This document shows, piece by piece, positions 9,319 to 62,157 of a stretch of 64,000 nucleotides of DNA (within the stretch, counting starts at the first letter, position 1; each line of letters starts with the position of its first letter). Made by a program: the position numbers and the translations under genes. The stretch covers positions 7,257-71,256 of the forward strand of contig JALLOO010000002.1 of the NCBI GenBank assembly GCA_027717985.1, written 5' to 3'. This stretch comes from Patescibacteria group bacterium AH-259-L05. GTDB lineage: Bacteria > Patescibacteriota > Patescibacteriia > UBA2591 > UBA6264. The notes under the pieces are model-generated. The model saw only the letters and a list, made by a program, of their open reading frames with translations, searched no databases and was not told where the DNA came from.

Positions 9319-9479
9319 AGGTACTAACTTATTACAAATTATGTCATAACTTAGTACTAAGTTACTACAATTTCTACCTATTGTCAATACTAGTTTTCCA
9401 CAGCCTATTTCTAAATATAAATCAAAAACAAAAAGCCAGAAACAATTATATCTCTGACTTTTTAATAAATGTGTTGAGA

Positions 9480-11199: not shown

Positions 11200-11275
11200 A
11201 GAACCTGCTCGCTCCGCTCACAGAACCTTGAAGTTTGGAAGGGGCGATATTTGTATTCAAACTTTAAGAACCACT
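11200..11275. repeat. composite AAGAACC...GAACCTTG / aagtttgaaagg...tatttgtat..aagaacc element
   Basis: aagaacctgctcgctccgctcacagaaccttgaagtttggaaggggcgatatttgtattcaaactttaagaacc; the same arrangement recurs at 45768..45866. Confidence 0.55.
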
Positions 11276-13800: not shown

Positions 13801-13864
13801 ATTATGTTTCCTTTTTTTGATTAAAATTAAATTACATTAATTTATATACAATGAAAATTTAATT

Positions 13865-15364
13865 TCAAGGTTCTGACGAGCGAAGCGAGGAATGGTTCTT
13901 ATTATTTTGTCTTGTTTCGCGAATAACCCTTCTATAGAGGGTTACATATTTTTTGGCAGGAAGCTTCCATGAATATGATTCTTTCATGGCACGACGCACC
14001 AATGTTTTCCACGCTCCCCGACGTTTATAATCTTCTAATGCACGCGCAATGGCAAATAAAAGATCTTGAGACGTATACGAGGTAAACACAAACCCATTGC
14101 CTCTGCCTGTTTGGGGATTGTAGTCACTAATCGTATCAAGTAATCCACCGACCGCGTGCACAATAGGAATGGATCCATAGCGCAAGCTAATTAATTGCGA
14201 AATCCCACATGGTTCAAAACGAGATGGCATTAAATAAATATCTGAAGCAGCATATACCTTTCTCCCAATATGCTCTTGAAACGGTGAAAAAAATAATAAA
14301 TTTTTACGGTGCTTTCGCGCAGCTTTTCTTAAAAAATCTCTATATACCCCGCCACCGCTCCCTACAATAGCAATTTGTACATCAAGTTTCAAAAGATAAT
14401 CAAGTATATCAATAATTAATTCAAATCCTTTTTGCTCAGTCAATCGATTCGCTAAACCGATCAAGGGCGCTTTAGGATCAACTCTTAAACCAAATCGTTT
14501 TTGCAGCAACACCTTATTCTCACTCTTTTTTTCTAATGAACTTGCATCGTAATTTACATACACATCTTCATCAAATTGCGGATTAAAAATAGTATAATCA
14601 ACACCATTGATAATACCATATAAATCTTTTTTTCTTCCCCGTAAATAACTATCTACATTACATCCATGTTCGGGGGTTAATATTTCCTGTGCATATCGCG
14701 GACTGACGGTATTAATAAGATCGCTGTAGAGAATACCGCGCAGCGCAAAATTAAGCCAATGTAATTGATCTTTATCATGGGGCGGCAAACCCTTTCCATT
14801 ATCTTTTTTCTCTGGCGGAATCTTCCACCAATCTTCTGGTCCTTGAAATAATAAATTATGAATAGTGAAAAGTGTTCCAATATTTTTAAGCGTGTCATCA
14901 CGATTGTATTGTAATTTCAAATAATTAGGAATAAGTCCCGCATGCCAATCATGAGCATGAATAACCTGCGGCTTAAGTCCTAAAACCTTAAGTAGTTTAA
15001 GGGACGCAAGGTTAAATAATAAAAAACGAAGACCGTCGTCTTCATACCCATACAATTTATGCCGTGAACCAAATAATTCTCGCTGGCAAATAAATATAAC
15101 CGGATATTTATCAGGACATATTATTTTCTTAAACCCAAACCTGTATTCTTTCCCTCCAAATTCTACTGAAATCCTTTCCTTTAAATTCTCCATACCCCAT
15201 CCTTTTTTACCAATAAACCCATAATACGGAGTAAATACGACTATTTCATGTCCTAGTCGAACTAATGCACGCGGCAAAGATCGCGCCACATCAGCAAGCC
15301 CACCGCTTTTTGAATACGGAGAAATCTCAGAACTTACATGAACAATTTTTAAAGGCCGTACCAT
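13865..15364 (-). CDS. glgA: glycogen (starch) synthase, GT5
   Basis: KIVHVSSEISPYSKSGGLADV and the GT-B C-terminal motifs. The last roughly 12 codons (…HSSLRSSEP) are encoded by an AAGAACC-family repeat. Confidence 0.85.
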   Translation of the reverse strand: MVRPLKIVHVSSEISPYSKSGGLADVARSLPRALVRLGHEIVVFTPYYGFIGKKGWGMENLKERISVEFGGKEYRFGFKKIICPDKYPVIFICQRELFGSRHKLYGYEDDGLRFLLFNLASLKLLKVLGLKPQVIHAHDWHAGLIPNYLKLQYNRDDTLKNIGTLFTIHNLLFQGPEDWWKIPPEKKDNGKGLPPHDKDQLHWLNFALRGILYSDLINTVSPRYAQEILTPEHGCNVDSYLRGRKKDLYGIINGVDYTIFNPQFDEDVYVNYDASSLEKKSENKVLLQKRFGLRVDPKAPLIGLANRLTEQKGFELIIDILDYLLKLDVQIAIVGSGGGVYRDFLRKAARKHRKNLLFFSPFQEHIGRKVYAASDIYLMPSRFEPCGISQLISLRYGSIPIVHAVGGLLDTISDYNPQTGRGNGFVFTSYTSQDLLFAIARALEDYKRRGAWKTLVRRAMKESYSWKLPAKKYVTLYRRVIRETRQNNKNHSSLRSSEP

Positions 15365-16594: not shown

Positions 16595-17254
16595 TTACCT
16601 TTTCATTAAACTTAATTGATACTCTTTTACCTCTTTGCGTAAATATTTTTTTACTCTTGGCCAAGAATAACTTGAATCAAAAACTCTAATACGCCGACTG
16701 CGTGTAGCAGGAGTAGATTTTTCAGCATCAACAAAATAAATAAGTCCCCTCAGAGCCGTTAATACATTAAAGGTTGGATACTTCTCTTTTGTTAATCTTA
16801 TAATCTTTTTAAGGCCCATTTTCTGAATTAAATAATACATATCAATAAAATCTCTCTTAGTTCCTCTCTGAACAATGGCAGCTACTTTCATAGCTGCGAT
16901 ATCTTCAACAGAAGCTACAGGCACGCCGGAAATTAAAACCTTCGGGCGAATCAAAGCATATGGATAATAAAAACAACTAATGTCTACGCCCTGAACGCTT
17001 AATATTAATGTATCTTGCTCTATAACATCCTCTTCAATATCTTCTATAGAGAAGTGTCTATAAAAATCTTTTATTAATAAACGTCCATCAAATTTCTCAG
17101 GACTATAAAAATCAAAATCCTGGGATGTTCGATGGCCCATCTGTAAAGCCAATGCTGTCCCGCCAGATAAATACCCTCCACGTTCTTTAAGAAAAGTTAA
17201 TTTCTCAAAAACTTTTCTTTTTTGATAACTTAAAATAGTCTTTAAATACATCAA
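16595..17254 (-). CDS. AbiEii/AbiGii-like nucleotidyltransferase (putative toxin)
   Basis: GGTALALQMGHRTSQDFDFY matches the GGTAL plus DxD nucleotidyltransferase signature. It is shorter than typical AbiEii. Confidence 0.5.
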   Translation of the reverse strand: MMYLKTILSYQKRKVFEKLTFLKERGGYLSGGTALALQMGHRTSQDFDFYSPEKFDGRLLIKDFYRHFSIEDIEEDVIEQDTLILSVQGVDISCFYYPYALIRPKVLISGVPVASVEDIAAMKVAAIVQRGTKRDFIDMYYLIQKMGLKKIIRLTKEKYPTFNVLTALRGLIYFVDAEKSTPATRSRRIRVFDSSYSWPRVKKYLRKEVKEYQLSLMKR

Positions 17255-17549
17255 AGCGCGGATTAATATCTAAAATAGCCCATTTATAAACTTGTTTAGG
17301 GATCTTCACATCTAAAATTTTAGCCCAATAATTAAGAGATTTAGGGAACCACATCCCTCGTCTTGGATTTTTAACAACTTCAACAATATCTTGCTTTTTA
17401 TATGTTTTAAAAAGCCATTTCACTGCCCTTATATTACCACGATTTAAAACCTGTTGAATAATCAACTCTTTGTCATCGGGATCATAAGGATCCATTTGAG
17501 AAATGTCATACGACCACAAACATGTTTGTAAAAATTTAGGTAAAGCCAT
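17205..17549 (-). CDS. hypothetical protein; possible cognate partner of the AbiEii-like gene (50-nt overlap)
   Basis: Upstream overlapping ORF of 114 aa. No wHTH AbiEi signature was recognised. Confidence 0.3.
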   Translation of the reverse strand: MALPKFLQTCLWSYDISQMDPYDPDDKELIIQQVLNRGNIRAVKWLFKTYKKQDIVEVVKNPRRGMWFPKSLNYWAKILDVKIPKQVYKWAILDINPRFDVFKDYFKLSKKKSF

Positions 17550-17669
17550 ATATTAATTTATTTATTCTATACCCTTATTGTACCATAAATAGACCCAAAA
17601 AGCAAGATAGACACATACCTATTTTAGTGCTACAATATGTATGAACTCATAAATCTTAAATTTGCAATC

Positions 17670-18770
17670 ATGTCTACGCTTGATGATATAAATAAAATCA
17701 AACAACTTGATACATCAGGTATGGCTGATTTTATTGCTGATCTCCCCAACCAAATCCTCAAAGCATATAAACAAAGCCAGAAAATAAAATTGCCTAAAAA
17801 TTTTAAAAATATCTCAAATATTGTCGCCTGCGGCATGGGCGGTTCAGCTATTGGCGGTGACGTAGTCAAGGCACTGATTGATAATCAATTATCATTGCCG
17901 TTTATTATAAACCGCTCGTATCAATTGTCCCAAACAGTCAATAAAAACAGCTTGGTGTTTTTAGTTAGTTTTTCAGGCAATACCCAAGAAACCTTATCCT
18001 GCGCGAAAGTTGCAATACAGAAAAAAGCGCATATATTTGTTATCACCAGCGGTGGAAAACTATTAGTACTCGCTCAAGAAAAAAAAATACCCTTATTTAC
18101 ATTTTCATATAAAGGTCCGCCCCGCGCAAGCTTAGGCTATTTATTTATACCCATACTTATAACGTTAGAAAAACTTGGTCTTGTTAATCTTGATGCATTC
18201 AACATCACAGAATCAATTGAAAAACTAAAAAAATTTAACCAGCTATTTTACCCAGAAACGCCAAGCGAAAAAAATATTGCAAAATACTTAGCATATTTTA
18301 TATTTGACCATCTCCCTATTATTATTGCCCCTGAAGAGCTTAATGGTATTGCAAGACGCTTTAAAACACAAATGGCAGAAAATGCAAAAACATTTTCTTT
18401 TTTTGAAACTGCTCCTGAAATTTTTCACAATTCTATTGAAAGCCAATTTCCGTGGCGATTAAAAGATGATATTGTTTTTTTAATTCTCTCTCCTTTGTCT
18501 TCCCGCGCTTCGCGCGGGAAGACAAGAGAAGAAATGTCATCCCGAGCGCAGTCAAGGGAAGAAAAATTCATCACTGTTTTTAAAAAATTATTAGATAAAG
18601 AAAATATTCGCTGGGAAGCAATACCTGCATCTGGAGATAACGTATTTCTCAATATACTCTCTTTTATTCTTGCGGGTGATTGGATTAGTTTTTATTTGTC
18701 TATCCTTAATGAAACTGACCCCACGCCTGTTAAAAAAATACAATGGCTCAAGCGTCAAATAAAACAATGA
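17670..18770 (+). CDS. bifunctional phosphoglucose/phosphomannose isomerase (SIS domain)
   Basis: NIVACGMGGSAIGGDVV SIS motif, plus a C-terminal PGI/PMI-type region. The likely start is MSTLDDIN at 17670. It carries a palindromic repeat insertion at 18497-18568. Confidence 0.6.
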   Translation: MSTLDDINKIKQLDTSGMADFIADLPNQILKAYKQSQKIKLPKNFKNISNIVACGMGGSAIGGDVVKALIDNQLSLPFIINRSYQLSQTVNKNSLVFLVSFSGNTQETLSCAKVAIQKKAHIFVITSGGKLLVLAQEKKIPLFTFSYKGPPRASLGYLFIPILITLEKLGLVNLDAFNITESIEKLKKFNQLFYPETPSEKNIAKYLAYFIFDHLPIIIAPEELNGIARRFKTQMAENAKTFSFFETAPEIFHNSIESQFPWRLKDDIVFLILSPLSSRASRGKTREEMSSRAQSREEKFITVFKKLLDKENIRWEAIPASGDNVFLNILSFILAGDWISFYLSILNETDPTPVKKIQWLKRQIKQ

Positions 18771-21123: not shown

Positions 21124-21196
21124 TTGTCATTCCTTTTTTATTGTCATCCCGCACGAAACGCGGGATGACAAGGGGGTGTGCGGGATGACAAGGGGG
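21124..21196. repeat. GTCATCCCGC palindromic element, probable bidirectional terminator
   Basis: tgtcatcccgcacgaaacgcgggatgaca is a perfect 10-bp stem, followed by a second cgggatgacaaggggg half-site. It lies between convergent genes. Confidence 0.55.
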
Positions 21197-21206: not shown

Positions 21207-21608
21207 CTATTCTGGAGCAGTTACCTCACTCAACCGCTCAATCACAAATGTAGCAATTGTATACGCTAAAATAACAATAATTAAGCCGACAACTGCGCTG
21301 GTTATAATACCCTTGGCTTTTTTTATTTTTTCCTCATTTCCACCCGAGGTCATCCACATAAATCCACCCACAATTAAAAGAACCACTAAAATAAGCCCTA
21401 ATAATTGTAACACAACTTTTACCATCCTGCCGACCAACGTTGGCACATCTGTTTCAGTTCCTAATCCTGCTTCGCCTGCAACATTTCGCAATTGTTCTAA
21501 CTGTGCAAAGGCAGGAGTAGCAATAATAAACAAAAATAAAAAAATGCTGACAAAACAAACAAATTGCGTGCCTGAAAAAACAGGCCTGCTATCTCTTATG
21601 CCTTCCAT
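21207..21608 (-). CDS. secreted bitopic membrane protein, paralog 1 (VirB2/TrbC-pilin-like topology)
   Basis: Sec signal peptide (…TPAFA/QLEQ), then TM1 ending LLIVGGFMWMTSGGNEEKIKKAKG, then TM2. Confidence 0.45.
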   Translation of the reverse strand: MEGIRDSRPVFSGTQFVCFVSIFLFLFIIATPAFAQLEQLRNVAGEAGLGTETDVPTLVGRMVKVVLQLLGLILVVLLIVGGFMWMTSGGNEEKIKKAKGIITSAVVGLIIVILAYTIATFVIERLSEVTAPE

Positions 21609-21631
21609 ACGATCTAATTTAATACTTCCTA

Positions 21632-21997
21632 CTAAGAGGCTCCTGTTACGCCCGTCAATTGATCAACAACAAATGTCGCAGCTGCGTATGCGATTATAAC
21701 AATCACTAAACCAATAATAGCTGCGCCCATCAACTGCTTTGCCTTGCCCACCTTTTCTTCATTCCCACCTGAGGTCATCCACATAAATCCGCCAACAATA
21801 AGCAAAATCGTAGCTATTAATCCGAGAAGGCTCAAAACAACCTTTACAATCGCGCCAATAACCTCTGGCAAACTTTTTGTCCCTAATCCAGCATTCTGCC
21901 CAAACTCAAGCAATCCTTCATTTAAAGCTTGCCCAAATGCTAATGAAGGCACCAATAGCAGTGAAACCAAAAGTGTAGAAGCAATAAGTTTTTTCAT
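21632..21997 (-). CDS. secreted bitopic membrane protein, paralog 2
   Basis: Signal peptide (…SLAFG/QAL) and LLIVGGFMWMTSGGNEEKVGKAKQ. Confidence 0.45.
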   Translation of the reverse strand: MKKLIASTLLVSLLLVPSLAFGQALNEGLLEFGQNAGLGTKSLPEVIGAIVKVVLSLLGLIATILLIVGGFMWMTSGGNEEKVGKAKQLMGAAIIGLVIVIIAYAAATFVVDQLTGVTGAS

Positions 21998-22099
21998 ACA
22001 AACTCTATTAATTTTTTAAACCCAACGACTTTATATACTATTTATACAAAATAAACCACAATTAGTCAAGTTTTCTACTGTGTATAACTTGTTGTATTG

Positions 22100-22250
22100 G
22101 AATTCCTAAATTCCGATACATACAAGAGGAAGGGGATCGGGGAAACGTAGTTTCCCCGTGGGGGTGACAGAAGCGAATGAAGTGAGCGACGCCAGAGGGC
22201 GGAAGCTCTATGGAGAACATAGTTCGCGAGCATTAGCGAGCGACTCCGTT
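22100..22250. repeat. GC-rich repeat/hairpin block within the pilin-like cluster
   Basis: cggggaaacgtagtttccccg is a perfect 9-bp palindrome, together with gaagtgagcgacg/gagcgactc motifs shared with 50058-50180. Confidence 0.4.
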
Positions 22251-22252
22251 CA

Positions 22253-22612
22253 TTACTCCCCTTTTAATGCCTTTAAAATAAACTCCAGAATTGCATAACT
22301 AAAGAAAATAAACGCCAATCCTATCACAGCCCATACAATCGTATCTTTTCCTTTTTTTATTTTTTCTGCATTTCCGCCTGAGGTCATCCACAAAATTCCC
22401 CCGTAGATAAACATTACCAAAGCCAAAACGCCCACAATGCCTAAAACTGCTTTAATAATCCTGCCAGCCAACTCTGGAATTGGTTCTTTCCCCTCTAAAT
22501 TTAGAGGGTCTTCCAATACTTGTGCAAACAAACTCTGGGACAACAATATATATACCCCTATCACCAAAACTACTATCATTCCTGCATAAATTTTATTTTT
22601 TTTATTTAGCAT
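22253..22612 (-). CDS. secreted bitopic membrane protein, paralog 3
   Basis: Signal peptide (…SLFA/QVL) and MFIYGGILWMTSGGNAEKIKKGKD. Confidence 0.45.
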   Translation of the reverse strand: MLNKKNKIYAGMIVVLVIGVYILLSQSLFAQVLEDPLNLEGKEPIPELAGRIIKAVLGIVGVLALVMFIYGGILWMTSGGNAEKIKKGKDTIVWAVIGLAFIFFSYAILEFILKALKGE

Positions 22613-22614
22613 AT

Positions 22615-23592
22615 TTATTTACAAGATGCATTTGTTATATCTTTTCTTATATCTAGTAACATCGAGGGGTCGACTTCCATTGCATACTTATACGTATATT
22701 CATCAACTATACCATTTTCTGCTAATCCAAAAAGGGATTCCTCTTTAAAGCCGTATTCTTGATAAAATCTATTATATGATTTTTTGAAGTTTATTGTGCA
22801 TATTTCTGTCTGCGATCCAAACTTTCCATCTATCCACTTACAATCGCATCCCATATCCTCTAATGCTCGCTGATAATTCTTAACTATTTGCGCTCTCCAG
22901 CATAAGCTATCCTCATTCTGAGGACTTACACAGTTATGACACCAGTAGGTAGTCGGAGCATCTTGAACAGGTGAAAAACAGCCAAAAGTATCAGGTTCTG
23001 GCTCCCATATATCTTCTATATCCCCAAGAAAACCAGGCCCTTCTACATCCTCAATCGGCAATTCTGGCCTTTCTGGCACCTCAAAACTTACATATTCTTC
23101 CTCAACTCCAAACATAGTACCAAGCACTCTAATTCCTGCTACCGCACCTAAAACAATCACCATGCCAACAACTGCGCCGCTGATAATCTTCTTACCTAAC
23201 TGCACCTTTCCAGTAGATCCGCCCGATGTTATCCAAATCACGCCGCCGATAATAAACATAAGCAAGGCAAAAACTCCTAAATATCTTAAAATTATTTTAG
23301 CAATATTAACTCCTAATGCTAAAAAGTTGCTTAAATCACAATCACCACAAAATACGCAAATTGGATCCCTCATCAACCATCCCAATTCACCGCCCTCCAC
23401 TACATTACCGCCCACTACTCTTTCCCCTTCTAGACCTCCCTGACAATTACATTTCCACGTCCCATCTTCTTGTTTTATACAGTCTGAATACCTATCGCCC
23501 CCAATCGCTCTTGGAAAAGCATATACAACAGAACTAATTAAAAATAACAAAAGCAATACTGCAAATATCAAAATTATTTTTTTAGAAAACAT
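22615..23592 (-). CDS. paralog 4: Cys-rich N-domain, pilin-like TM hairpin and C-terminal peptidoglycan-binding-like domain
   Basis: MFIIGGVIWITSGGSTGKVQLGKK core. N-terminal CIKQEDGTWKCNCQGG...CVFCGDCD. C-terminal CKWIDGKFGSQTEICTINFKKSYNRF...GLAENGIVDEYTY resembles PG_binding_1. Confidence 0.45.
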   Translation of the reverse strand: MFSKKIILIFAVLLLLFLISSVVYAFPRAIGGDRYSDCIKQEDGTWKCNCQGGLEGERVVGGNVVEGGELGWLMRDPICVFCGDCDLSNFLALGVNIAKIILRYLGVFALLMFIIGGVIWITSGGSTGKVQLGKKIISGAVVGMVIVLGAVAGIRVLGTMFGVEEEYVSFEVPERPELPIEDVEGPGFLGDIEDIWEPEPDTFGCFSPVQDAPTTYWCHNCVSPQNEDSLCWRAQIVKNYQRALEDMGCDCKWIDGKFGSQTEICTINFKKSYNRFYQEYGFKEESLFGLAENGIVDEYTYKYAMEVDPSMLLDIRKDITNASCK

Positions 23593-29518: not shown

Positions 29519-32500
29519 ATGTCAAAACATAAATCAAAATCACAATGGCGGTCTAAAAAAATTAGTTCGCCAAAAAAATCAAAATTCACCAAGAAAAAGT
29601 TATCTCCGGCGGAGCAAAGTCTTCAAAAAGCAAAAAAAACCACCGCACCAAAACGAAAAATAAAACGAGCTAAACCCCAACCCCGTACCAAAACAAGTTC
29701 GGTACGGGGCAAGAAAACAAATCTGGTGAAAAAGCTTTTTATTTTTATTATTTTTCTCGTCCTTGTCTTTGGTGCAATCGGGAGCATCAGTCTATTTTTG
29801 CTTACCAAAAGCCTGCCGCATCCAGAAAAATTAATAGAGCGAAGTATTGCCCAAAGTACGAAAATATATGCCCGAGATGAAAAAACACTGTTATATGAAA
29901 TATTTTCTGAACAAAGGCGAACCGTAGTTGATCTGGAAAAAATTCCTCAGCATCTTGTCTATGCCACTATTGTTTCAGAAGACAGAGATTTTTTTACTCA
30001 TCCAGGATTTGATATTTCTGGGATTGCGCGCGCCATTCTCGTTGATATTCTTCGCGGAGGTAAAGTTCAAGGTGGCTCAACCCTCACCCAGCAGTTTATA
30101 AAAAATGCCTTTTTAACGCGAAAAAAAACATACACCAGAAAAATCAAAGAACTGCTCATGGCATATCAAGTTGAAAAAAAATTTAGCAAACTTGAAATAC
30201 TTCAGATGTACTTTAATGAAATTCCCTACGGATCAAATGCATATGGCGCTGAAGCAGCGAGTCAAATCTATTTTTCAAAATCAGTACGCGACCTAACGTT
30301 AGATGAAACAACGCTCTTAGCTGCGCTTCCGAAAGCGCCTACCTATTACTCTCCCTATGGTCAACACACTGAAGAACTACTTTTTCGCCAACACTTTATT
30401 TTAGATGTTATGACTGAAGAAGGATATATTACCTCTTCGCAGGCTTTGCAGGCTAAAAGCATTAATACGTTAGAAAAAATTACGTCACGTCGTGAAAATA
30501 TTCGCGCTCCTCACTTTGTCTTCTACGTGAGAGAATTATTAACTGAAAAATACGGTGATCGTCTTGTAGAACAGGGCGGGCTCAAGGTTATTACCACACT
30601 TGACTTTGACAAACAAACAATTGCAGAACAAGCAATTGAAAAATATGCAGAGCGTAATGAAGAAATATTTGATGCTACAAATGCGGCATTAGTTGCCATT
30701 GATGTAGATACCGGACAAATTCTTGCTATGGTAGGATCAAAAGATTTTTTTAACGAAGAAATTGATGGCCAAGTAAATGTAGTAACACGAGAACGTCAAC
30801 CAGGATCATCCTTTAAACCAATTGTCTATGCGACCGCATTTGAAAAAGGCTATACCCCTAATACAATTATATTTGATGCAGAAACAAGTTTTGGCCCTAA
30901 AACACCTGAACCAGATGCCCAAGATTATATCCCGCGAAACTATGATGAAAAATTCAGGGGTCCGGTTAGTATGCGAAAAGCATTAGCAGGATCATTAAAT
31001 ATCCCAGGTGTAAAAACAATGTATTTAGCAGGGGTTAATAACGTTTTAAACACGGCGGAACGTATGGGCTACACTACCTTAGAAGACAGAGAACAATACG
31101 GTCTCTCGCTTGTTTTAGGAGGGGGAGAGATAAAACTATTAGAACATGTAGCAGCTTTTGCTATTTTTGCCCGTGAAGGTGTTAAAATCCCTACAACGAG
31201 TATTTTAAAAGTGGAAGATAACAAAGGTAATATTTTAGAAGAATTACCTAAAAAACCCAAACTTCCTCAAACAGTATTTGATCCGCAAATCGCCCGGCTC
31301 ATCAATGACATCTTATCTGATAATCAATCACGGGCGTTTATGTTTGGCTATCAAAACTTTTTAACACTCCCTAATCGGCCTGTTGCCGCAAAAACAGGTA
31401 CTACCAATGACTTTCGTGACGCGTGGACTGTTGGCTTTACGCCAAATCTTGCAGCTGGTGTATGGGTGGGGAATAACAACAATGATGTAATGGGTGAAAA
31501 AGCTGATGGTTCAACGGTTGCCGCGCCCATTTGGAATGAATTTATGAAGCGTGCCTTAGAAAATACCTCTCCTCAACCATTTACTCCTCCTGAAACAATC
31601 TACGTAGACAAGCCAATATTAAACGGGGAAATCCCTGGGAAAATTACGCTCAAAATTGACACGGCATCAAAAAAATTAGCAACTGAGCTCACGCCTGACT
31701 CACAAATAATAGAAAAAACCTTTGTAAGCTTTTATCCTATTCTCTACTACATAGATAAAAATAACCCGCAAGGACCGCTCCCCTCAAACCCAAAAGCTGA
31801 TTATCAATATGAATTCTGGGAAGAGGGAATTACCAACTGGCTTACTGCCGTATCTGAATTACTTGCCTCACCAGCTTCTCCCTCTGTCATCCTGCCACTT
31901 CAGGATGACAAAGAGGAGGGACAGGATGACAAAGAGGAGGGACAGGATGACAAAGAGAGCGTCATCCCGAGCGAAGACGGGGAAGGCCCCAAAGTTGTTA
32001 TTTCTGATTTTATATTTGACCTTGCGCTTGAAGGACTTGAAATACCACCAACTGAATATGATGATGTCCATATTCCAGCAAATGAACCGTATATAAAAAT
32101 TCTTTCTCCTTCAAATAATACAATCATTAATGAAAATGTTATTCGGATAAAGGTAGAAGCATCAGCGCCGCGTGGACTTAAAAAAATAACATGTTCTATT
32201 GATGATGCACCGCTTGATAGTATTGTGGTAAACAGCCCAAATATTCAGTCATACACCTGTGTCCTTGGCCTTAGCGGGATCTCTTCGGGAAAGCATACTA
32301 TTAAAGCAACCGCGCTTGATGATGTTGGTAACAACAATACCGACGCTATTCAAATAATTACCGCTCAAGGATTTGAAAGGACATTTGAATGGCTTTCACC
32401 AAAAAATAATGATGTGGTATATCAAGGTAATTTTCCACTCACACTCTCAGTTCTCACTCCGCCGACTAAAATCAATACGATAAAGTTTTTCGCACAAAAT

Positions 32501-32674
32501 CAAAACACGTATCAGCTTTCACTTATCAGCACTATATTTAATCCTGAAACTGTTGGTGTCATTGAAACGCCTTGGAATTTAGCTGACAAAGGAATGTATG
32601 AACTATGGGCAGAAATGACTGATATTGATGGCCAAACACAGACCAGCAACAAAATCCAAATTGAAATTGAATAA
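29519..32674 (+). CDS. mrcA: class A penicillin-binding protein (transglycosylase plus transpeptidase) with long C-terminal extension
   Basis: GT51 motifs (EDRDFFTHPGFD, GGSTLTQQ), a transpeptidase SxxK region, and a C-terminal domain of roughly 300 aa containing a repeat-encoded DDKEEGQ x2.5 insert. Confidence 0.85.
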   Translation: MSKHKSKSQWRSKKISSPKKSKFTKKKLSPAEQSLQKAKKTTAPKRKIKRAKPQPRTKTSSVRGKKTNLVKKLFIFIIFLVLVFGAIGSISLFLLTKSLPHPEKLIERSIAQSTKIYARDEKTLLYEIFSEQRRTVVDLEKIPQHLVYATIVSEDRDFFTHPGFDISGIARAILVDILRGGKVQGGSTLTQQFIKNAFLTRKKTYTRKIKELLMAYQVEKKFSKLEILQMYFNEIPYGSNAYGAEAASQIYFSKSVRDLTLDETTLLAALPKAPTYYSPYGQHTEELLFRQHFILDVMTEEGYITSSQALQAKSINTLEKITSRRENIRAPHFVFYVRELLTEKYGDRLVEQGGLKVITTLDFDKQTIAEQAIEKYAERNEEIFDATNAALVAIDVDTGQILAMVGSKDFFNEEIDGQVNVVTRERQPGSSFKPIVYATAFEKGYTPNTIIFDAETSFGPKTPEPDAQDYIPRNYDEKFRGPVSMRKALAGSLNIPGVKTMYLAGVNNVLNTAERMGYTTLEDREQYGLSLVLGGGEIKLLEHVAAFAIFAREGVKIPTTSILKVEDNKGNILEELPKKPKLPQTVFDPQIARLINDILSDNQSRAFMFGYQNFLTLPNRPVAAKTGTTNDFRDAWTVGFTPNLAAGVWVGNNNNDVMGEKADGSTVAAPIWNEFMKRALENTSPQPFTPPETIYVDKPILNGEIPGKITLKIDTASKKLATELTPDSQIIEKTFVSFYPILYYIDKNNPQGPLPSNPKADYQYEFWEEGITNWLTAVSELLASPASPSVILPLQDDKEEGQDDKEEGQDDKESVIPSEDGEGPKVVISDFIFDLALEGLEIPPTEYDDVHIPANEPYIKILSPSNNTIINENVIRIKVEASAPRGLKKITCSIDDAPLDSIVVNSPNIQSYTCVLGLSGISSGKHTIKATALDDVGNNNTDAIQIITAQGFERTFEWLSPKNNDVVYQGNFPLTLSVLTPPTKINTIKFFAQNQNTYQLSLISTIFNPETVGVIETPWNLADKGMYELWAEMTDIDGQTQTSNKIQIEIE

Positions 32675-37364: not shown

Positions 37365-37411
37365 AGTATACTTCTCATTTCTGTATTATTACTTAAAGTC
37401 TGGATAAAGAT

Positions 37412-37466
37412 ATCATTCCTTTCAGACTTCAAGGTTCTTCCGAACGAAGTGAGGAATGATTCTTAT
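37412..37466. repeat. AAGAACC-family element nested in a 9-bp inverted repeat (atcattcct...aggaatgat)
   Basis: cttcaaggttcttccgaacgaagtgaggaatgattcttat lies in the divergent mltG/ychF intergenic region. Confidence 0.5.
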
Positions 37467-37552
37467 TTATTTTAACAAGAATAACATATAATACAAGATG
37501 AGATACATGAGTAACACTTTCTTTTTTTAACTAGAAACAATATACTTAAAAT

Positions 37553-38614: not shown

Positions 38615-38706
38615 TTAAATTCGTCATTCGTCATCCCACACCCCATTCGTCACCTCGCAACTTTTAGCTGCAGGGTGGCACTTTTTCTTGTCATCCAGCT
38701 TCGCGG

Positions 38707-38812
38707 GATGATAAAGTGATGGGATGACAAAGGAATAGGATGACAAAGTGATGGGATGACAAAGGAATAGGATGACAAAGTGATGGGATGACAAAGGAAT
38801 AGGATGACAAAG
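38707..38812. repeat. tandem array: 3.3 copies of the 32-nt unit gatgacaaagtgatgggatgacaaaggaatag (built from 16-nt gatgacaaag-like subunits)
   Basis: Direct repeats with no spacers, preceded by tcgtcattcgtcatcccaca and gtcatccagcttcgcgggatga hairpins. Confidence 0.7.
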
Positions 38813-42199: not shown

Positions 42200-42232
42200 T
42201 CCCTGTATCAACTACAGGGGTTTTTCTTTTTG
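42200..42232 (+). terminator. rho-independent terminator CCCTGTAtcaactaCAGGGG+T-run
   Basis: Immediately 3' of the 1089-aa gene. Confidence 0.6.
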
Positions 42233-42251
42233 TCATTCCGCGACCTTTTTT

Positions 42252-42283
42252 TGTCATTCCGCGACCAGTGGTCGCGGAATGAC
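42252..42283. repeat. GTCATTCCGCGACC palindromic element
   Basis: gtcattccgcgaccagtggtcgcggaatgac is a perfect 14-bp stem, preceded by a second tgtcattccgcgacc half-copy. Confidence 0.6.
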
Positions 42284-42351
42284 AAAGGTGGGTTGACTTT
42301 TTTCTAAAATCTGTCATGATATAAATAACTAATACGTAAAGGAGGTATGCT

Positions 42352-45767: not shown

Positions 45768-45866
45768 AACTATAAGAACCATGCTTCGCAGAACCTTGAA
45801 GTTTGAAAGGAATGATATTTGTATCCAAACTATAAGAACCATGCTTCGCAGAACCTTGTTGTTCGC
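45768..45866. repeat. two direct copies of an AAGAACC-family element separated by aagtttgaaaggaatgatatttgtatcc
   Basis: aaactataagaaccatgcttcgcagaaccttg appears twice; the arrangement is shared with 11200..11275. Confidence 0.6.
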
Positions 45867-50049: not shown

Positions 50050-50352
50050 TATTGTTTTTGTCATTTCGACCGAGCGAACGAAGTGAGCGAGTGGAGAAAT
50101 CTCATACGTTTACGATAAATGAATGGTGTGAGATTCCTCGTCACGACTACGTCGTGACTCGGAATGACAAGGTGGGAGGTTTACTCGCTCTTCGTAAAGA
50201 CTTTTTCAGAGGTCTCATAATAAGAACCTTCCTTACTTTGTTCGGAGGAACTTTGAAGAGATATCTTTGATGTCATTGCGAGGAGCAGAGCGACGAAGCA
50301 ATCTCATGTATGAGATCCCTCGCTGCGCTCGGGATGACACTGCGTGTCATTT
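50050..50352. repeat. block of long imperfect palindromes of the GTCAT...GGATGACA family plus one AAGAACC-family element (50213-50252)
   Basis: tgtcattgcgaggagcagagcgacgaagcaatctcat/atgagatccctcgctgcgctcgggatgaca, and gtcatttcgaccgagcgaacgaagtgagcga...gtcgtgactcggaatgaca. Confidence 0.55.
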
Positions 50353-50377
50353 ATATCCAAACTTTAATATAACATTT

Positions 50378-52276: not shown

Positions 52277-52690
52277 TTAAATTTTATTTTTAATCAAAGA
52301 AATAAATTTTTTAATATCTTTTAGTCGATTTTGTAGTGTGTCGTATACAATATCATAATCTATTTGTTCATAGTCATGAGCAATAATATTTCTAAAACCA
52401 GTCATTTTCGCTAGTTGTTCTGTTAGTTTATTTGATATAATTTTTTCTTCATTTAGAATATAAAAGTTTTCGCTTAATGTTGTTGGTTTTCGAAATTTTT
52501 TTAATGAGATAACAGCTTCTGCTAAATCAATAGTTGCTTGAACAGCTAAATATAAATATCTCTCAAGAGACCCTTTAATGGTTATGTTTTGTTTTATTTC
52601 TTCTACCGAATACTTCTTAAAAGAATTTAAAATACTAAGATATTTTTCAACCGAACTGATTTTATTTTCAATCACAGAATGATTAGTCAT
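52277..52690 (-). CDS. hepT: HepT-like HEPN toxin (DUF86)
   Basis: Rx4HxY motif GFRNIIAHDYEQIDY. Confidence 0.7.
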   Translation of the reverse strand: MTNHSVIENKISSVEKYLSILNSFKKYSVEEIKQNITIKGSLERYLYLAVQATIDLAEAVISLKKFRKPTTLSENFYILNEEKIISNKLTEQLAKMTGFRNIIAHDYEQIDYDIVYDTLQNRLKDIKKFISLIKNKI

Positions 52691-53085
52691 GGCTTTGTAA
52701 GGTTATATTTTAAAAGCATTTGACGAAAGTCAAAATATTCATTAAGGATACGAGGCTCAATTAAAACCTTAAACGGCTCACGTTCTAAAATTAATTTTCC
52801 GTCTTTAATAATATTATATTTCAATTCAGGTTGTTCAACTGTGTTTAACATAACCACATCAATATTATCAGTCTTTAATATCCTGCTTATTATATCAATG
52901 AGTTTGAGCTTGAGATCGGTTATCTTTTTTTTATTATTTTCATCTATATAAAAAGCAAAATCATAGTCGCTTAATGGACCGCTGTTATCTTGTGCTTTTG
53001 ACCCAAATAAATATACAAGTTTTATTTGAGGAAAAGACTTGAAAGTTTTGACAAGTGATGTAATGTTTTTGTCTTTTTTTGTCAT
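52687..53085 (-). CDS. mntA: MntA-like nucleotidyltransferase antitoxin
   Basis: LFGSKAQDNSGPLSDYDFAF (GS..x9-13..DxD) pol-beta NTase motif. There is a 4-nt overlap with hepT. Confidence 0.7.
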   Translation of the reverse strand: MTKKDKNITSLVKTFKSFPQIKLVYLFGSKAQDNSGPLSDYDFAFYIDENNKKKITDLKLKLIDIISRILKTDNIDVVMLNTVEQPELKYNIIKDGKLILEREPFKVLIEPRILNEYFDFRQMLLKYNLTKP

Positions 53086-55706: not shown

Positions 55707-55972
55707 ACGTTTAGAATATAAAATAAAACTAGCTTTCTGTTTTTGGAAAGCTGGTCTGATCTATGTTGCGTTGTTATATAATTCTTTAATTTACTAAATC
55801 AAATACTAACTTTCCATCAGAAAGCCATGTAGCCCAATAGTTGCAAGAGTTATTTTTTGAAAAGTTAGTCATATGCAAGTAAGTTTATATAAGAAATAAA
55901 ATTTGGTCAATACTATCTATTGTGGATAAGTTATACTCTTAAAATTTGGCAGTTAAGATAGTATACCTTTTG

Positions 55973-56008
55973 AATTTCAAGGTTCTCGAGCGAAGCGAGA
56001 GGTTCTTA
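55973..56008. repeat. AAGAACC-family element overlapping the atpC stop
   Basis: caaggttctcgagcgaagcgagaggttcttata. Confidence 0.5.
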
Positions 56009-56269
56009 TATTTCTGCTAAAATTACCACTTCTTCGGGTTTTACCTCTAAAAATCCTTTTTTGATTTCAATAGTTTGTATTTGTTCTTTTTCGTATCGCT
56101 CAGGTTTTATAGATTTTTTAATTTTAATTACTCCTTTTTTAAGCGGTGTGATTAAAGGAATGTGGTGGTCAAGAATAGATATTTCTCCATCAATTGATGG
56201 CACGCTTAATAGACCAATACTTCCTTCAAATAATGTTTTCTCTAAGGTGTAAATAAAAAGATTGAACAT
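56006..56269 (-). CDS. atpC: F1 ATP synthase epsilon subunit (beta-sandwich domain only, 87 aa)
   Basis: …GLLSVPSIDGEISILDHHIPLITPLKKGVIKIK…. Confidence 0.75.
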   Translation of the reverse strand: MFNLFIYTLEKTLFEGSIGLLSVPSIDGEISILDHHIPLITPLKKGVIKIKKSIKPERYEKEQIQTIEIKKGFLEVKPEEVVILAEI

Positions 56270-56270
56270 A

Positions 56271-57647
<1,377 letters not shown>

Positions 57648-57653
57648 CTATAT

Positions 57654-58664
57654 TTATTTTAATGCTTCTTGGCTCGCAATTACTTCTAGAATTTCGTTCG
57701 TAATAGCAGATTGGCGTGCTTTGTTATAAAACAAGGTGAGATTTGTTAGAATTTCTCCTGCATTATCAGATGCATTTTTCATCGCAACCATTCGTGCAGA
57801 ATGTTCAGACGCATTTGTTTCTAAAATCATATGGTGGATTTGAATTTTAACTAAGAGGGGTAAAAGTTTGTCAAGTATTATTTCTTGTGATGGTTCAAAT
57901 ATATATTCGTAGTTATATGGAGATGAAGTTTGTTTTTTCCTTGACTCGCTTTGCTCGCTCGGAATGACAGGGGAGGGAGAGGGCTCGCTCGGAATGACAG
58001 GGGAGGGAGAGGGCTCGCTCGGAATGACAGGGGAGGAAGAGGCATATCTGACGGATTGGGGAGTAATCCCTTTGACAATTTCTTCAATCCCCATTTTTGT
58101 AATTGGTAAAACTTGGCGGATAACAGGATCTTGTTTTAGCGTGGAAATAAAGTTGGTATATGCGCACATAATTTTTTTATATTGACCGTTTTTATATATA
58201 TCAATAATTTTTTCAGCAAAAGGCAGTGTTTGTTCTAACTTTATATAATCACCAAAACCAGTAAATTCATAATGTACGGGTATATTTCGAAAATCAAAGT
58301 ATTTCTTTGCTTTTTTCCCAACCGTGATAATATCGATATCATCGTTTTTTTGAATGTAAGCATGCGTCTTTTTTAGCATATTATTATTATATCCGCCACA
58401 TAAACCTTTATCACTGGTAATGATAACAAGACATAGTTTGTTTGTCTGCGTTTTTTTTCTTAGTAAGAGGTGACGCTTTTGAGACACTTGTTCACTTACA
58501 TTTGAAAGAAGTTTGAGCGCATGTTCTGTATAAGGACGAGCATTGAGCGCATATTCTTGCGATCGCCGCATCTTAGTTGCGGAAACTGCTTCCATTGCAC
58601 GGGTAATTTGCTGCGTGTTTTTAATTGAGCGCATTCTGCGCTTTATATCTCGTCGAGATTCCAT
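57654..58664 (-). CDS. atpG: F1 ATP synthase gamma subunit with repeat-encoded insertion of roughly 45 aa
   Basis: The gamma N- and C-terminal helices are conserved. The internal SSSPVIPSEPSPSPVIPSEPSPSPVIPSEQSE is encoded by a 3x30-nt tandem repeat at 57953-58042. Confidence 0.85.
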   Translation of the reverse strand: MESRRDIKRRMRSIKNTQQITRAMEAVSATKMRRSQEYALNARPYTEHALKLLSNVSEQVSQKRHLLLRKKTQTNKLCLVIITSDKGLCGGYNNNMLKKTHAYIQKNDDIDIITVGKKAKKYFDFRNIPVHYEFTGFGDYIKLEQTLPFAEKIIDIYKNGQYKKIMCAYTNFISTLKQDPVIRQVLPITKMGIEEIVKGITPQSVRYASSSPVIPSEPSPSPVIPSEPSPSPVIPSEQSESRKKQTSSPYNYEYIFEPSQEIILDKLLPLLVKIQIHHMILETNASEHSARMVAMKNASDNAGEILTNLTLFYNKARQSAITNEILEVIASQEALK

Positions 58665-58670
58665 ATGATT

Positions 58671-60206
58671 TTATTCTTTGGAAAAAGTATTTTTAAATTC
58701 CTTAATTATATTTTGTAATTTTTTTTCTGTTTTTTCGTCTAAATCTTTATTTTTATGAATACTCTCTAAAAGCTCGGAGTGCATATTTTCTGCATATTCA
58801 AGAAATTTGTGTTCAAATTCTTTGATTTTTTCTACCCCAATATCGTCAAGAAAGCCATTTACTGCAGCATAGATAACAATGACTTGTTTTTCAAATGTAA
58901 GCGGACTATATTGAGGTTGTTTTAAAATTTCAGTAACTCGTTTACCTCGTTCAATTCGTTCTCGCGTTGCTTTATCAAGATCAGCGCCAAACTGAACAAA
59001 AGCAGCGAGCTCTCTGTATTGCGCTAATTCCAATCTGAGTTTGCCTGCTACCTTTTTCATTGCTTTTGTTTGCGCTGCTGAACCAACCCGTGATACGGAA
59101 AGACCAACATTTAATGCTGGTCGAATACCAGCATAAAATAGTTCTGGTTCTAAATAAATTTGGCCGTCAGTAATTGAAATAACATTGGTGGGAATATATG
59201 CAGAGACATCACCTGCTTGCGTTTCAATAATAGGGAGTGCAGTAAGTGATCCTCCGCCATGTTCTTTATTCAGTTTTGCTGCACGTTCCAAAAGACGGGA
59301 GTGGAGATAAAAAATATCACCAGGATAAGCTTCTCTTCCAGGCGGGCGGCGTAAAAGGAGCGAGATTTGTCTATATGACCAGGCATGTTTTGTTAAATCA
59401 TCATATATTACTAATGCATCTTTCCCTTTATCCATAAAGTATTCTCCTATAGCACATCCTGCGTAGGGCGCGATGTAAAGTAAGGGGGCAGGCTCAGACG
59501 CAGAGGCTACAACAACAGTAGTATACTCCATTGCCCCTGCTTTTTCTAACGTTGCAATAATTTTAGCTATTTTTGAATCTTTTTGGCCAATGGCAACATA
59601 AATACAAATAGGACGATTTTGCTTCGGTTCCTTTAGCTGGTTAATAATTGTATCAATTACGAGTGCGGTTTTTCCGATTTGTCGGTCGCCAATGATTAAC
59701 TCTCGTTGACCCCGGCCAATAGGTATCATAGAATCAATACTTTTAATACCAGTGTGAAGCGGTGCATTTACTGATTCTCGAGTGATGACGCGGGGCGCAA
59801 CATGCTCTATAGGATAAAAGTTTTTTGTTTTAATTTCTCCTTTTCCGTCGAGAGGTGTTCCCACAGGATTAACAACACGCCCAACAAGGGCATCACCAAC
59901 AGGGACTTGTAAGATTTTGTTTGTTGATTTTACTTCATCACCTTCTTTAATATGTTTATACTCACCCAAGATTACCGCGCCGATTTTATCTTCTTCAAGA
60001 TTAAGTGTAAGTCCATAGATTAGCTCATTTGTTTCAGGGTCTTGAGGAAATGCTAACATCTCTGATACCATTGCGTCTTTCAAGCCAACAATGGTAGCAA
60101 CACTATCTCCAACTTTTACTACTTTTCCAACCGTTTCCTTACTAATTTCAGGCTTAAATCCTTGGATTTGTTTTTTTAATTCTTCAATAATGTAGTCTTT
60201 AGCCAT
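58671..60206 (-). CDS. atpA: F1 ATP synthase alpha subunit
   Basis: GDRQIGKT plus alpha signature motifs. Confidence 0.95.
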
Positions 60207-60208
60207 TT

Positions 60209-60595
60209 TTATTTCAATTGTTGTTTTAATGAATTAAGCTGTTTTTTAATAGATCCATCAATAACAGTATCGCCAATTTGTATTTTTGCCCCTCCAATTA
60301 AACTTGGATCAACAATCTGTTTTATCTGTATTTTTTTATATGGTAATGCCTGCTGTATTTGTTTTATCGTGTCATTATCAAAGGCATTCGCGCTTGTAAT
60401 AATTGCTTCAGTAATATTTTTTGTTTGTTTATCAATTGAGGACACTTTATCAAGTATTTGTTTAAACAACGTAGCATCATTGTTTTTTACAAGAATGTTA
60501 TGAAGATTATTAATATAAGTTTTTATGTCAGATTTTTTTGAGTCCTCAATGCATTCATATAAAGCGTGTGCATATTGTTGTAAGGTATAACTCAT
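60209..60595 (-). CDS. atpH: F1 ATP synthase delta (OSCP) subunit, short (128 aa)
   Basis: C-terminal …[27 protein letters not shown]; placed between atpF and atpA. Confidence 0.7.
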
Positions 60596-61098
60596 GTAGT
60601 ATCTTTTAATACTTTTAATGTTTTTTGTGTTAGATCTTTTTGTTTTTGTTCAGTCATTTCTTGTTCTAAGATTTTTGAAGTTGCCCCCGCGATAAGATCT
60701 GCAATATCGCTTCTTACTTGTTTTATCATTACTTCTTTTTCTGCTTGAATCTGACTTTTTGCATCATCAATTATTTTTTGCGCCCTTTTTTCTGTAGCAG
60801 CAATGATTTCTTGTTGTTTTTGGTCGCCTGTTTCTTTTGCTTTGGCAATAATGCTTTGCGCTTGCTTGTGAATTTTGGCAAGCTCTTGCTCTTTTTGCTC
60901 TTGAAGTTTTTCAAATGCTTGTTCTGCTTGTTCTGCTTTCTCTAATCCTGAAACAATTTTTTCTTTACGCATATTCATGAATTTGACAAGTGGAGCGTAT
61001 AAGAATTTTTTTAAAACAAAAAGAAGAATTACAAAATTAATAATTTGTGCAATAAGCAATTTCCACTCAACACCTAATTGGTGAATTAGTTCTTCCAT
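60592..61098 (-). CDS. atpF: Fo ATP synthase b subunit
   Basis: N-terminal TM and long charged coiled coil. Confidence 0.8.
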   Translation of the reverse strand: MEELIHQLGVEWKLLIAQIINFVILLFVLKKFLYAPLVKFMNMRKEKIVSGLEKAEQAEQAFEKLQEQKEQELAKIHKQAQSIIAKAKETGDQKQQEIIAATEKRAQKIIDDAKSQIQAEKEVMIKQVRSDIADLIAGATSKILEQEMTEQKQKDLTQKTLKVLKDTT

Positions 61099-61170
61099 AA
61101 TAATAAACTTACGAATCCATGAACGTAAGAACGCATGAACAATTTGTTCTTTAGTTTTTTAGTCGTTTGA

Positions 61171-61410
<240 letters not shown>

Positions 61411-62157
61411 TTAATGTGTTTCGCTGGTGGCGATTTTTAAAAATACCAAGGTAAGCATAGCAAATATAAGTGCCTGGACAAATCCAACAAATAATTCTAA
61501 TACCATAAAGGGAAGCGGTGCAATAAAAGGAATTAAAAATGCTATCACTACCAAGAGCACTTCACCAGCAAAAATATTGCCAAATAATCGAAATGAAAAA
61601 GAAATTAATTTTGCTATTTCAGCAATAAGTTCTAAAATACCTGTAAAGGTGAGGATAGGATTTTTAAAATTAATATATCTTGAAATATATTTAAAAGTTC
61701 CAATTGCAGTGATGCCAAAAATTTGTGTTGCAATAACTGCGACAATCGCCAAGGCCAGAGTCATATTAATATCACTATTGGTTGAGCGAAAAAAGGGGAT
61801 AAACATTTCATGGCCATTCTGAGCTTTGTCAATTTCGAAAAAACCAATAGTTCCAATGCCCGGAACCAAACCAAGCCAGTTCGATAAGAGGATGAATATA
61901 AAAATAGTTGCAATTAAAGGAAAAAATTGCTCTGCTTGTTTCTTTTCTCCAACAACTTTCTCTATAAAATTTAACATTGTTTCAACAATACTTTCAACAA
62001 CATTTTGTAATGGCGAAGGAATGAGTTGTAATTTCCGTGTTGCAATTATTGAAATAATAATTAATATAGCTATGGCAATCCATGACATCAAAAGCGTGTT
62101 GGTAATGGGGAAGCCAAACAAAGTAAATACATGTTCAGCAGCTAACGAAATATGCAT
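61411..62157 (-). CDS. atpB: Fo ATP synthase a subunit
   Basis: …SFRLFGNIFAGEVLL…. Confidence 0.9.
   Translation of the reverse strand: MHISLAAEHVFTLFGFPITNTLLMSWIAIAILIIISIIATRKLQLIPSPLQNVVESIVETMLNFIEKVVGEKKQAEQFFPLIATIFIFILLSNWLGLVPGIGTIGFFEIDKAQNGHEMFIPFFRSTNSDINMTLALAIVAVIATQIFGITAIGTFKYISRYINFKNPILTFTGILELIAEIAKLISFSFRLFGNIFAGEVLLVVIAFLIPFIAPLPFMVLELFVGFVQALIFAMLTLVFLKIATSETH

Follow-up and report, generated by a model that had tools for sequence, protein, structure and literature searches.

The gene for the ATP synthase F1 gamma subunit (atpG) of Patescibacteria group bacterium AH-259-L05 (L05) contains, in frame, three tandem copies of a 30-nt module that probably derive from a short, dispersed hairpin element. 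The gene lies in a 64-kb stretch of contig JALLOO010000002.1, which was analysed as a whole and is referred to here as the window. L05 is a single-cell genome; the AH-259 plate, to which it belongs, is made up of such genomes from sediment of the shallow subsurface at the Atlantis Massif (PMC8406227). The features at the locus are as follows, with the basis of each assignment in brackets.

56006-62157, minus strand: complete ATP synthase operon, atpB-E-F-H-A-G-D-C, around atpG (open reading frames, ORFs).
56271-57644, minus strand: atpD, the neighbour of atpG on the side away from atpA.
57654-58664, minus strand: atpG, ATP synthase F1 gamma subunit, intact, 336 aa (ORF and Pfam PF00231).
58671-60206, minus strand: atpA, neighbour of atpG.
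57953-58042, minus (coding) strand: tandem array of three 30-nt modules, codons 208-238 (Tandem Repeats Finder and raw sequence).
57937-57952, minus strand: right arm of the element, present once, coding strand AAAGCGAGTCAAGGAA (match to the cross-phylum consensus).
57903-58061, minus strand: gamma residues 202-254, a loop of low confidence in which the array lies (AlphaFold2 predicted local distance difference test score, pLDDT, below 50).

The original prediction placed three tandem 30-nt copies in frame inside atpG, and the locus bears this out. Tandem Repeats Finder returns a period of 30, 3.0 copies, 98% matches, a score of 173 and the consensus GCTCGCTCGGAATGACAGGGGAGGGAGAGG; the array is read through without a frameshift, inside an intact 336-aa ORF with a full-length PF00231 match (E 7.8e-88, residues 5-335 against profile positions 3-285 of 285, end to end). 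The product is matched by 50 solved gammas, and is 100% identical to the NCBI protein "ATP synthase F1 subunit gamma" of AH-259-L05. In related loci from the sister genome AH-259-L07 (L07; L001) and a more distant relative (L006), gene order and Pfam families match those of the operon in the window. The ratio of nonsynonymous to synonymous substitution (dN/dS) between the L05 and L07 orthologues is 0.19, at a dS of 0.19, and every pair among the five closest gamma genes gives a dN/dS of 0.10-0.19. Because the ratio is this low in all pairs and the operon is intact, atpG is judged to be a functional gene under purifying selection.

Two small genes or ORFs were seen on the opposite strand. A 73-aa antisense ORF in the window (57964-58185, plus strand) encodes repeats of MTGEGEGSLG and is opened by GGAGG-like stretches of the array followed by ATG (in GGAATGAC); it is probably spurious. 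In L07 (L001 5763-6056, 97 aa) and in the more distant relative (L006 10985-11395), a small gene on the opposite strand lies between atpG and atpD, which abut in the window, and this gene has no Pfam match.

The array units occupy 57953-57982, 57983-58012 and 58013-58042. A single base sets the third apart, with GGAAGAGG in place of GGGAGAGG, and the other two are identical. On the coding strand, each module consists of a pyrimidine leader, CCTCT(T/C)CCTCCCCT, a core, GTCATTCC, and the eight-base left arm of a hairpin, GAGCGAGC. The coding-strand order is AGATATG, then CCTCTTCCTCCCCT GTCATTCC GAGCGAGC, then CCTCTCCCTCCCCT GTCATTCC GAGCGAGC twice, and then AAAGCGAGTCAAGGAA. The right arm (GCGAGTCAAGGAA) follows only the third unit in coding order, such that the last core (57953-57968) and the right arm together make one complete 34-nt element, GTCATTCCGAGCGAGCAAAGCGAGTCAAGGAAAA. 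This element matches 30 of the 34 positions of a consensus, GTCATTCCGAGCGAGCGAAGCGAGTCGAGGAATC, that was obtained from loci of other phyla. The array is translated in silico as SSSPVIPSEPSPSPVIPSEPSPSPVIPSEQ, which comprises 30 Pro/Ser-rich residues. The 30-nt unit has a G+C content of 67%, as compared to about 37% for the surrounding region and about 35% for the window.

The 30-nt unit on its own, half of the element, is not palindromic and does not fold. In DNA folding calculations, the unit, the consensus element and the whole array were no more stable than their shuffles. A first reading of that result, that the element is not a hairpin, was dropped, given that the outer stem covaries between copies and that the GCGNAGC tops are not credited by nearest-neighbour parameters. 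Nested self-insertion was also rejected as the origin of the array, as it would leave several right arms and just one is present.

The claim that the core is shared with intergenic palindromes throughout the window stands far above chance, with the proviso that the 30-nt unit is itself no palindrome. There are 14 occurrences of GGAATGACA in the window against 0.30 expected from shuffles, 11 of them outside atpG, and with up to two mismatches there are 8 occurrences of GTCATTCCGAGCG against 0.45 expected. Cores of the form GTCATYCC number 26 on both strands in 64 kb. The family forms at least seven intergenic clusters and also lies in frame in two further genes. The clusters that bear most on atpG are listed here.

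18495-18565, plus strand: two elements in frame in a phosphoglucose/phosphomannose isomerase (PGI) gene (17637-18770), encoding SPLSSRASRGKTREEMSSRAQSRE, 24 aa.
31880-31990, plus strand: in-frame cluster in a PBP1A-type gene (29519-32674), encoding SVILPLQDDKEEGQDDKEEGQDDKESVIPSEDGEG.
21126-21195, unstranded: intergenic cluster with the palindrome GTCATCCCGC...GCGGGATGAC and a duplicated right arm, not found in the orthologous L07 spacer.
38705-38812, unstranded: intergenic array of 6.8 right-arm modules (GGGATGACAAAGGAAT / AGGATGACAAAGTGAT).
42229-42286, unstranded: intergenic, left arm and leader twice, then the perfect palindrome GTCATTCCGCGACC-AGT-GGTCGCGGAATGAC.

The intergenic clusters follow one rule, in which one arm and its leader are repeated beside a single complete hairpin. 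Such one-arm arrays occur at 42229-42286, 21126-21195, 38705-38812 and, within the PBP1A gene, 31901-31957. The PBP1A cluster starts with a perfect palindrome, GTCATCCTG-CCACTT-CAGGATGAC, continues with 2.7 copies of a 21-nt right-arm module, CAGGATGACAAAGAGGAGGGA (QDDKEEG), and ends with GTCATCCCGAGCGAAGACGGGG (SVIPSE); it sits between the transpeptidase domain (residues 390-677) and an Ig-like Big_7 domain (857-930). The isomerase elements are missing from the L07 orthologue (P0122) and are partly shared with another relative (P0123). Relatives of the isomerase have further short insertions, at several positions. Where the window is syntenic with L07, there are 11 cores in L05 as compared to 2 in 30 kb of L07, and several clusters are missing from the orthologous L07 spacers, which indicates a repeat family that is dynamic between the two genomes. 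Rfam gave no family on the window other than one tRNA, and no match at E up to 1 for five element-rich loci.

The element is also found in the atpG genes of relatives. The L07 gamma is 92% identical to that of L05 over aligned residues, and its gene carries a single complete element, at the codon of the L05 array (GCC TCT TCC CCC CTT GTC ATT CCG AGC GAG CGG AGT GAG TCG AGG AAA), which can be parsed as CCCCCTT GTCATTCC GAGCGAGC GGAGTGAGTCGAGGAA and translated as PLVIPSERSESRK. The L07 element also matches the cross-phylum consensus at 30 of 34 positions; between the L05 and L07 elements, the core is identical over 16 nt and the right arm differs at 5 of 18 positions. Given the copy at the same codon in L07, the element was in atpG before L05 and L07 split. 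What sets L05 apart is the difference between one copy and three, rather than the presence of the element. The variant base bears on how the copies arose: the first copy in coding order (58013-58042) has a T, as in L07, where the other two copies both have a C. This pattern argues for at least two duplication steps and suggests two successive duplications in the L05 lineage.

Neighbour-joining of five gammas gives the tree ((((window,L07)95%,P0003),P0005)84%,P0004)100%. In P0004, the outgroup of this five-member clade, four independent assemblies carry a colinear, AT-enriched and decayed copy, GTCGTTCCGGATGAACC, read as SVVPDEPNK. P0003 and P0005 have a linker that is nine codons shorter, without leader and core. 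Independent insertions of the element at a hot spot may also account for the distribution among relatives. Other insertions are present in the gammas of the clade. In P0004, a different palindrome (GGCTCCGAGACCTGACCCAG...CTGGGTCAGGCCTCGGGGCC) lies at the 3' end of atpG (L002 2530-2600), where it brings a new stop codon and replaces the last gamma residues, with the old gene end still legible downstream. P0005 (L009 727-1728) has a 26-aa insertion (LHNEIDPIRNNPDGHRDAALNKERIS) at about residues 120-146, in a different gamma loop, and the P0021 and P0028 gammas have further insertions. Gamma in this clade takes insertions at several places.

The array was said to interrupt an otherwise conserved subunit. 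The subunit is a real gamma, whereas the site of the insert is a hypervariable loop that is predicted to be disordered, and not a conserved part of the protein. The AlphaFold2 model has the gamma fold, with helices at 4-57 and 260-335 and strands and helices between them, and Foldseek gives it a template modelling (TM) score of about 0.8 to the Caldalkalibacillus, PS3 and Chloroflexus gammas. The loop is flanked by a clade-specific helix (190-199) and by the C-terminal helix from residue 260; the insert has a pLDDT of 33-39 and contains no cysteines. Alignment to related gammas, which had been proposed as a check, locates the insert in the loop before the C-terminal helix and outside the blocks shared with solved gammas. 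The latter align to residues 1-191 and 247-334 only, such that none covers 192-246. The linker from the G-R-Y motif to the Y-x-Y-E-Y motif ranges from 5 to 42 aa, with a median of 13, among the 120 patescibacterial gammas retrieved, and that of the window ties for the longest. In the clade, the loop also holds a conserved extra helix and a P-x-x-G-R-Y motif.

In the chloroplast gammas, the first aligned block stops at residue 237 of the spinach precursor (6fkf_g) and at residue 194 of a mature chain (22vl_D), just before the redox cysteines 199 and 205; the loop with the insert is then the one that holds the regulatory insert of chloroplast and cyanobacterial gammas. The Y-x-Y-E-P segment after the loop presumably corresponds to the region around residues 205-207 of Escherichia coli gamma, which contacts the c-ring, and this places the loop at the base of the rotor. 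In the 120-gamma alignment, this loop contains unrelated short peptide repeats in many Parcubacteria gammas (TSYKLQATSY, TTNYKLQTTNY and SPDFRLPTSDFR are examples), which look as if they were translated from other DNA repeats, each specific to a lineage.

The element is not confined to Patescibacteria. One-genome-per-species contigs were searched with a 21-nt pattern of leader, core and arm, CCCCT(N)GTCATTCCGAGCGAGC, and 20 loci (L010-L029) were found, where about one is expected by chance according to our own arithmetic. At least 15 of the 20 continue with a GAGGAAT-type right arm, although this was no part of the query. By record title, the hosts include Acidobacteria, Terriglobia, Thermoanaerobaculia, Gemmatimonadaceae, Anaerolineaceae, Saprospiraceae and Bacteroidales, together with Verrucomicrobiia, Gammaproteobacteria, Bradyrhizobium, Bifidobacterium, Saccharibacteria and Gribaldobacteria. 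A set of 45 distinct copies has a common plan of (GTC)ATYCC, GA, a variable helix, GA and GGRAT. The outer stem of these copies covaries, with ATTCC/GGAAT against ATCCC/GGGAT, and the top is most often GCG(A/C/G)AGC.

Metagenomes were scanned for two cores that lie 6-20 nt apart. The scan gave 99 contigs (L034 onward) with 103 left-arm arrays of 2-6 copies, at a period of 25-36 nt and a mode of 28. A complete copy stands at the end of 85 of the 103, and the most frequent break point is immediately behind the mini-hairpin. There is no excess of periods divisible by three, and most of these arrays are therefore probably non-coding. Some do lie in frame, for example with VIPSERSATP repeated four to five times, in the following genes.

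GidA-family gene: PF01134, E 1e-61, VIPSERSATP repeated.
RF-1-domain gene: PF00472, E 5e-22.
LysE transporter gene: PF01810, E 2e-32.
Gene for an HprK-like protein: weak match.
The contigs with these genes are L045 (array near 410-455), L120 (ORF 9160-10417), L062 (array near 1478-1520), L070 and L107 (array near 1149-1194).

With the atpG insert as query, an exhaustive phmmer search gave a single true relative, which is a 56-aa ORF of like architecture, (APVIPSERSD)x3; the other three matches were unrelated low-complexity proteins. The consensus element had no match in a plasmid collection. Literature searches by DNA strings, by translated peptides and by the topic of Patescibacteria and in-frame repeats found no description of the element. 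The arrays of the window and of the metagenomes indicate that one-arm repetition is a property of the element family and that its tolerance in frame is recurrent.

The atpG array is probably best explained by a dispersed hairpin element, similar to a repetitive extragenic palindrome (REP), that was fixed in frame in a permissive loop of gamma, with later tandem expansion of its leader and left-arm module. A short, GC-rich element, made up of a pyrimidine leader, the GTCATTCC core, a GA-flanked helix and a GGAAT closing arm, would have entered the variable linker in an ancestor of the Patescibacteria lineage to which L05 belongs. The simplest history has one insertion before the clade diversified, decay in P0004 and loss of the module in P0003 and P0005. 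After the split from L07, the module, whose 30 nt are a multiple of three, would have undergone two further tandem duplications in L05, while the right arm stayed single. We infer that replication slippage or unequal recombination was responsible, as is expected once two copies exist, and the frequent end of one-arm arrays at a very stable mini-hairpin suggests that replication may stall there. The insert, presumably translated, would yield a 30-residue, disordered, Pro/Ser-rich extension of a solvent-exposed loop at the rotor base that already varies in length, where it would be tolerated.

Several observations weigh against this explanation. No microhomology is seen in the raw sequence at the junctions of the atpG modules, and so simple slippage lacks the power to explain the first duplication. 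Neither the L05-specific insertions, in alignment with L07, nor the atpG junctions have target-site duplications of the kind that mark a miniature inverted-repeat transposable element, and no transposase genes were found in the window. The more distant P0006 has YASSPVTTSSDPE at the insert site, with a YASSPV start and no core, which may be either what is left of an older copy or an ancestral linker with no more than a likeness to the element. The three-copy allele is known from one single-cell assembly, with a protein cluster of one member on one contig, and a scan of metagenomes for alleles of the L05 atpG found none. The copy number may instead have contracted from three to one in L07. Finally, the insert is most likely neutral or nearly so, rather than a functional module, and this neutrality is an assumption.

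An ordinary coding minisatellite, in which a native Pro/Ser-rich linker was duplicated by slippage and its likeness to dispersed repeats is coincidental, was considered as well. The array does resemble such loci, with a unit that is a multiple of three, a low-complexity and disordered product, presumed slippage, and a copy number that, as in variable number tandem repeats, differs between close relatives (one in L07, three in L05, at the dS of 0.19). The loop is hypervariable in any case, as the unrelated Parcubacteria repeats (TSYKLQATSY) attest, and P0006 has its similar YASSPV start without the core. Coincidence would nonetheless have to supply 16 bases identical to the element (GTCATTCCGAGCGAGC) and 30 of 34 overall in both L05 and L07, a pyrimidine leader like that of other family copies, a G+C content of 67% in a region of about 37%, and left-arm modules followed by one full copy, which is the architecture of the 85 metagenomic arrays. 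The unit also comes from a dispersed element, and its host is a core bioenergetic enzyme rather than a surface or contingency protein, which differs from the usual coding minisatellite. This alternative is improbable.

It is similarly unlikely that the array, or its copy number, is an amplification or assembly artefact of a single-cell genome. Amplification chimeras are typically inversions and not 30-nt direct repeats, which speaks against an artefact. There is a single assembly with no independent contig, and genomes of this kind were made by multiple displacement amplification (PMC8406227), both of which favour an artefact. At 90 nt, however, the array should be shorter than a typical read and than the long k-mers of the assembler; one of the copies differs from the others, it is this copy that agrees with L07, and the frame is preserved. 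The independent cell L07 has the element at the same codon.

An adaptive role, in which the module might tune rotation, contacts with epsilon or the c-ring, or inhibition, is no more likely than an artefact. It could be favoured by the insertion site, which is the redox loop of chloroplast gamma according to the alignment and to the cysteine positions assumed above, by the conserved extra helix and P-x-x-G-R-Y motif that the clade already has in this loop, and by an element core that is identical over 16 nt in L05 and L07 while the right arm differs at 5 of 18 positions. The fold position is indeed that of the chloroplast and cyanobacterial insert, from the last globular strand to the segment entering the C-terminal helix (Cys199/Cys205). 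That insert is a conserved, structured hairpin with a redox-active cysteine pair in plastids, whereas the atpG insert has no cysteines, is predicted to be disordered at a pLDDT of 33-39 and is not conserved among relatives. In addition, copy number differs between the sister genomes, leader and core are missing from two close relatives, and related elements occur in unrelated proteins and in spacers.

That atpG is a decaying pseudogene, as had been raised, or that the 90 nt are removed from RNA or protein like an intron or an intein, is very improbable: nothing beyond the oddity of a repeat within an essential gene favours it, and the ORF is full-length with a dN/dS of 0.19, the operon complete, the NCBI gamma annotation normal, introns are included in the negative Rfam result for the window, and a 30-aa Pro/Ser repeat has no intein features.

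The resemblance to the in-frame spread of Rickettsia palindromic elements (RPEs), to which the array had been likened, holds for the process and not for the sequence family. RPEs are restricted to Rickettsia and are about 100-150 bp long (Ogata et al. 2000, 2002, as summarised in PMC10969869). Both elements are dispersed and non-autonomous with hairpin potential, both lie between genes as well as in frame in conserved housekeeping genes of a bacterium with a small genome, both apparently owe their tolerance to a location on the protein surface, and neither encodes a transposase. Here, the in-frame cases are atpG, PGI and PBP1A, next to the seven or more intergenic clusters. RPEs are single whole units that encode a conserved peptide, whereas atpG has tandem half-elements. 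Its 30-nt unit, its 34-nt element with leader, its Patescibacteria host and a family that spans many phyla also set it apart from RPEs as they have been described. By this comparison, the atpG element would not belong to the RPE family, even as the process appears to work alike.

The similarity to REPs and to bacterial interspersed mosaic elements (BIMEs) is closer in form. Like REPs, the element is a short (20-40 nt), imperfect palindrome in which the base is conserved and the top varies, and it is very numerous, clustered and free of target-site duplications; the palindrome is evident in the 45 copies with ATYCC...GGRAT and in the 26 cores of the window. The conserved 5' tetranucleotide of REPs is GTAG. 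In the element the conserved 5' motif is instead GTCAT, its clusters are direct repeats of one arm in place of the alternating inverted REPs of BIMEs, and classical REPs are extragenic and species-specific. No gene for a REP-associated tyrosine transposase (RAYT, Y1) flanked by the element is found within the window. In L07 (L033 14468-14984), a Y1_Tnp (IS200/RAYT-like) gene lies beside a HIT gene and is flanked by CGGGGGTCSGACCCCCG hairpins, which are a different palindrome; neither the gene nor this palindrome occurs in the window.

The top of most family copies, GCG(A/C/G)AGC, is the GCGNAGC mini-hairpin motif, the DNA of which melts at 70-76 C and occurs at origins of replication of single-stranded phage DNA (PMC13037366). 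The canonical top is lost from the atpG copies, which read GCAAAGC (window) and GCGGAGT (L07). The literature searched gave no link between this mini-hairpin and dispersed repeats.

A wider reading is possible but more tentative than the account of atpG itself. The atpG array may be one case of an undescribed family in many phyla, a 34-nt hairpin with a GTCATTCC base, a helix flanked by tandem G-A and a GCGNAGC top, whose leader and one-arm module multiply by a mechanism intrinsic to the element, and which has repeatedly been fixed in frame in housekeeping genes (atpG, PGI and PBP1A here; GidA-family, RF-1-domain and LysE genes in GC-rich soil bacteria). If so, new disordered linkers in proteins would have a general source in the element, which would also mark horizontal spread between phyla. 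Its range, from Acidobacteria to Bifidobacterium, with array architecture alike and copies also inside genes, may matter more than the atpG case.

To our knowledge, the colonisation of conserved genes in frame by selfish repeats has one textbook case, that of Rickettsia. A similar process would here be at work in ultra-small, uncultured Patescibacteria and in the rotor of the ATP synthase, with an element four times shorter that expands through duplication of one of its halves. Gamma would have a naturally permissive site in the loop before its C-terminal helix, which is useful for engineering and for reading length variation among gammas. For annotators, the element would explain the recurrent VIPSE, SFRAS and QDDK peptides in predicted proteins.

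The element touches two more genes in the window. At 4300-4320, a GTCATTCC core falls within the final 30 codons of a GH57-family gene (ORF 4217-6208, minus strand), in the part of this gene that overlaps the start of the next; its C-terminus may have been extended or replaced by the element. Upstream of dnaN (50055-50340) there are several elements, including a strong hairpin, GTCATTCCGAGTCACGACGTAGTCGTGACGAGGAATC. The ORF call for dnaN is inflated, as the listed TTG start at 50267 reads through elements, and dnaN probably starts at the ATG at 50375 instead.

L05 and L07 also have in common a second dispersed repeat, about 75 nt long. It has a hairpin, TCCGAGCGAAGCGAGGAA, between two GGTTCT direct repeats, and no GTCAT. 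Its copies lie at 11198-11273, 13861-13901, 37388-37467, 45773-45849 and 55939-56009 in the window and at 7931-8079 and 11510-11585 in L033.

Elsewhere in the window, all on the minus strand, there are an AbiEii/DUF6922 pair (16595-17549), a toxin-antitoxin-like HepT/nucleotidyltransferase pair (52277-53085) and a cluster of four paralogues that resemble pilins of the type IV secretion system (T4SS; 21207-23592).

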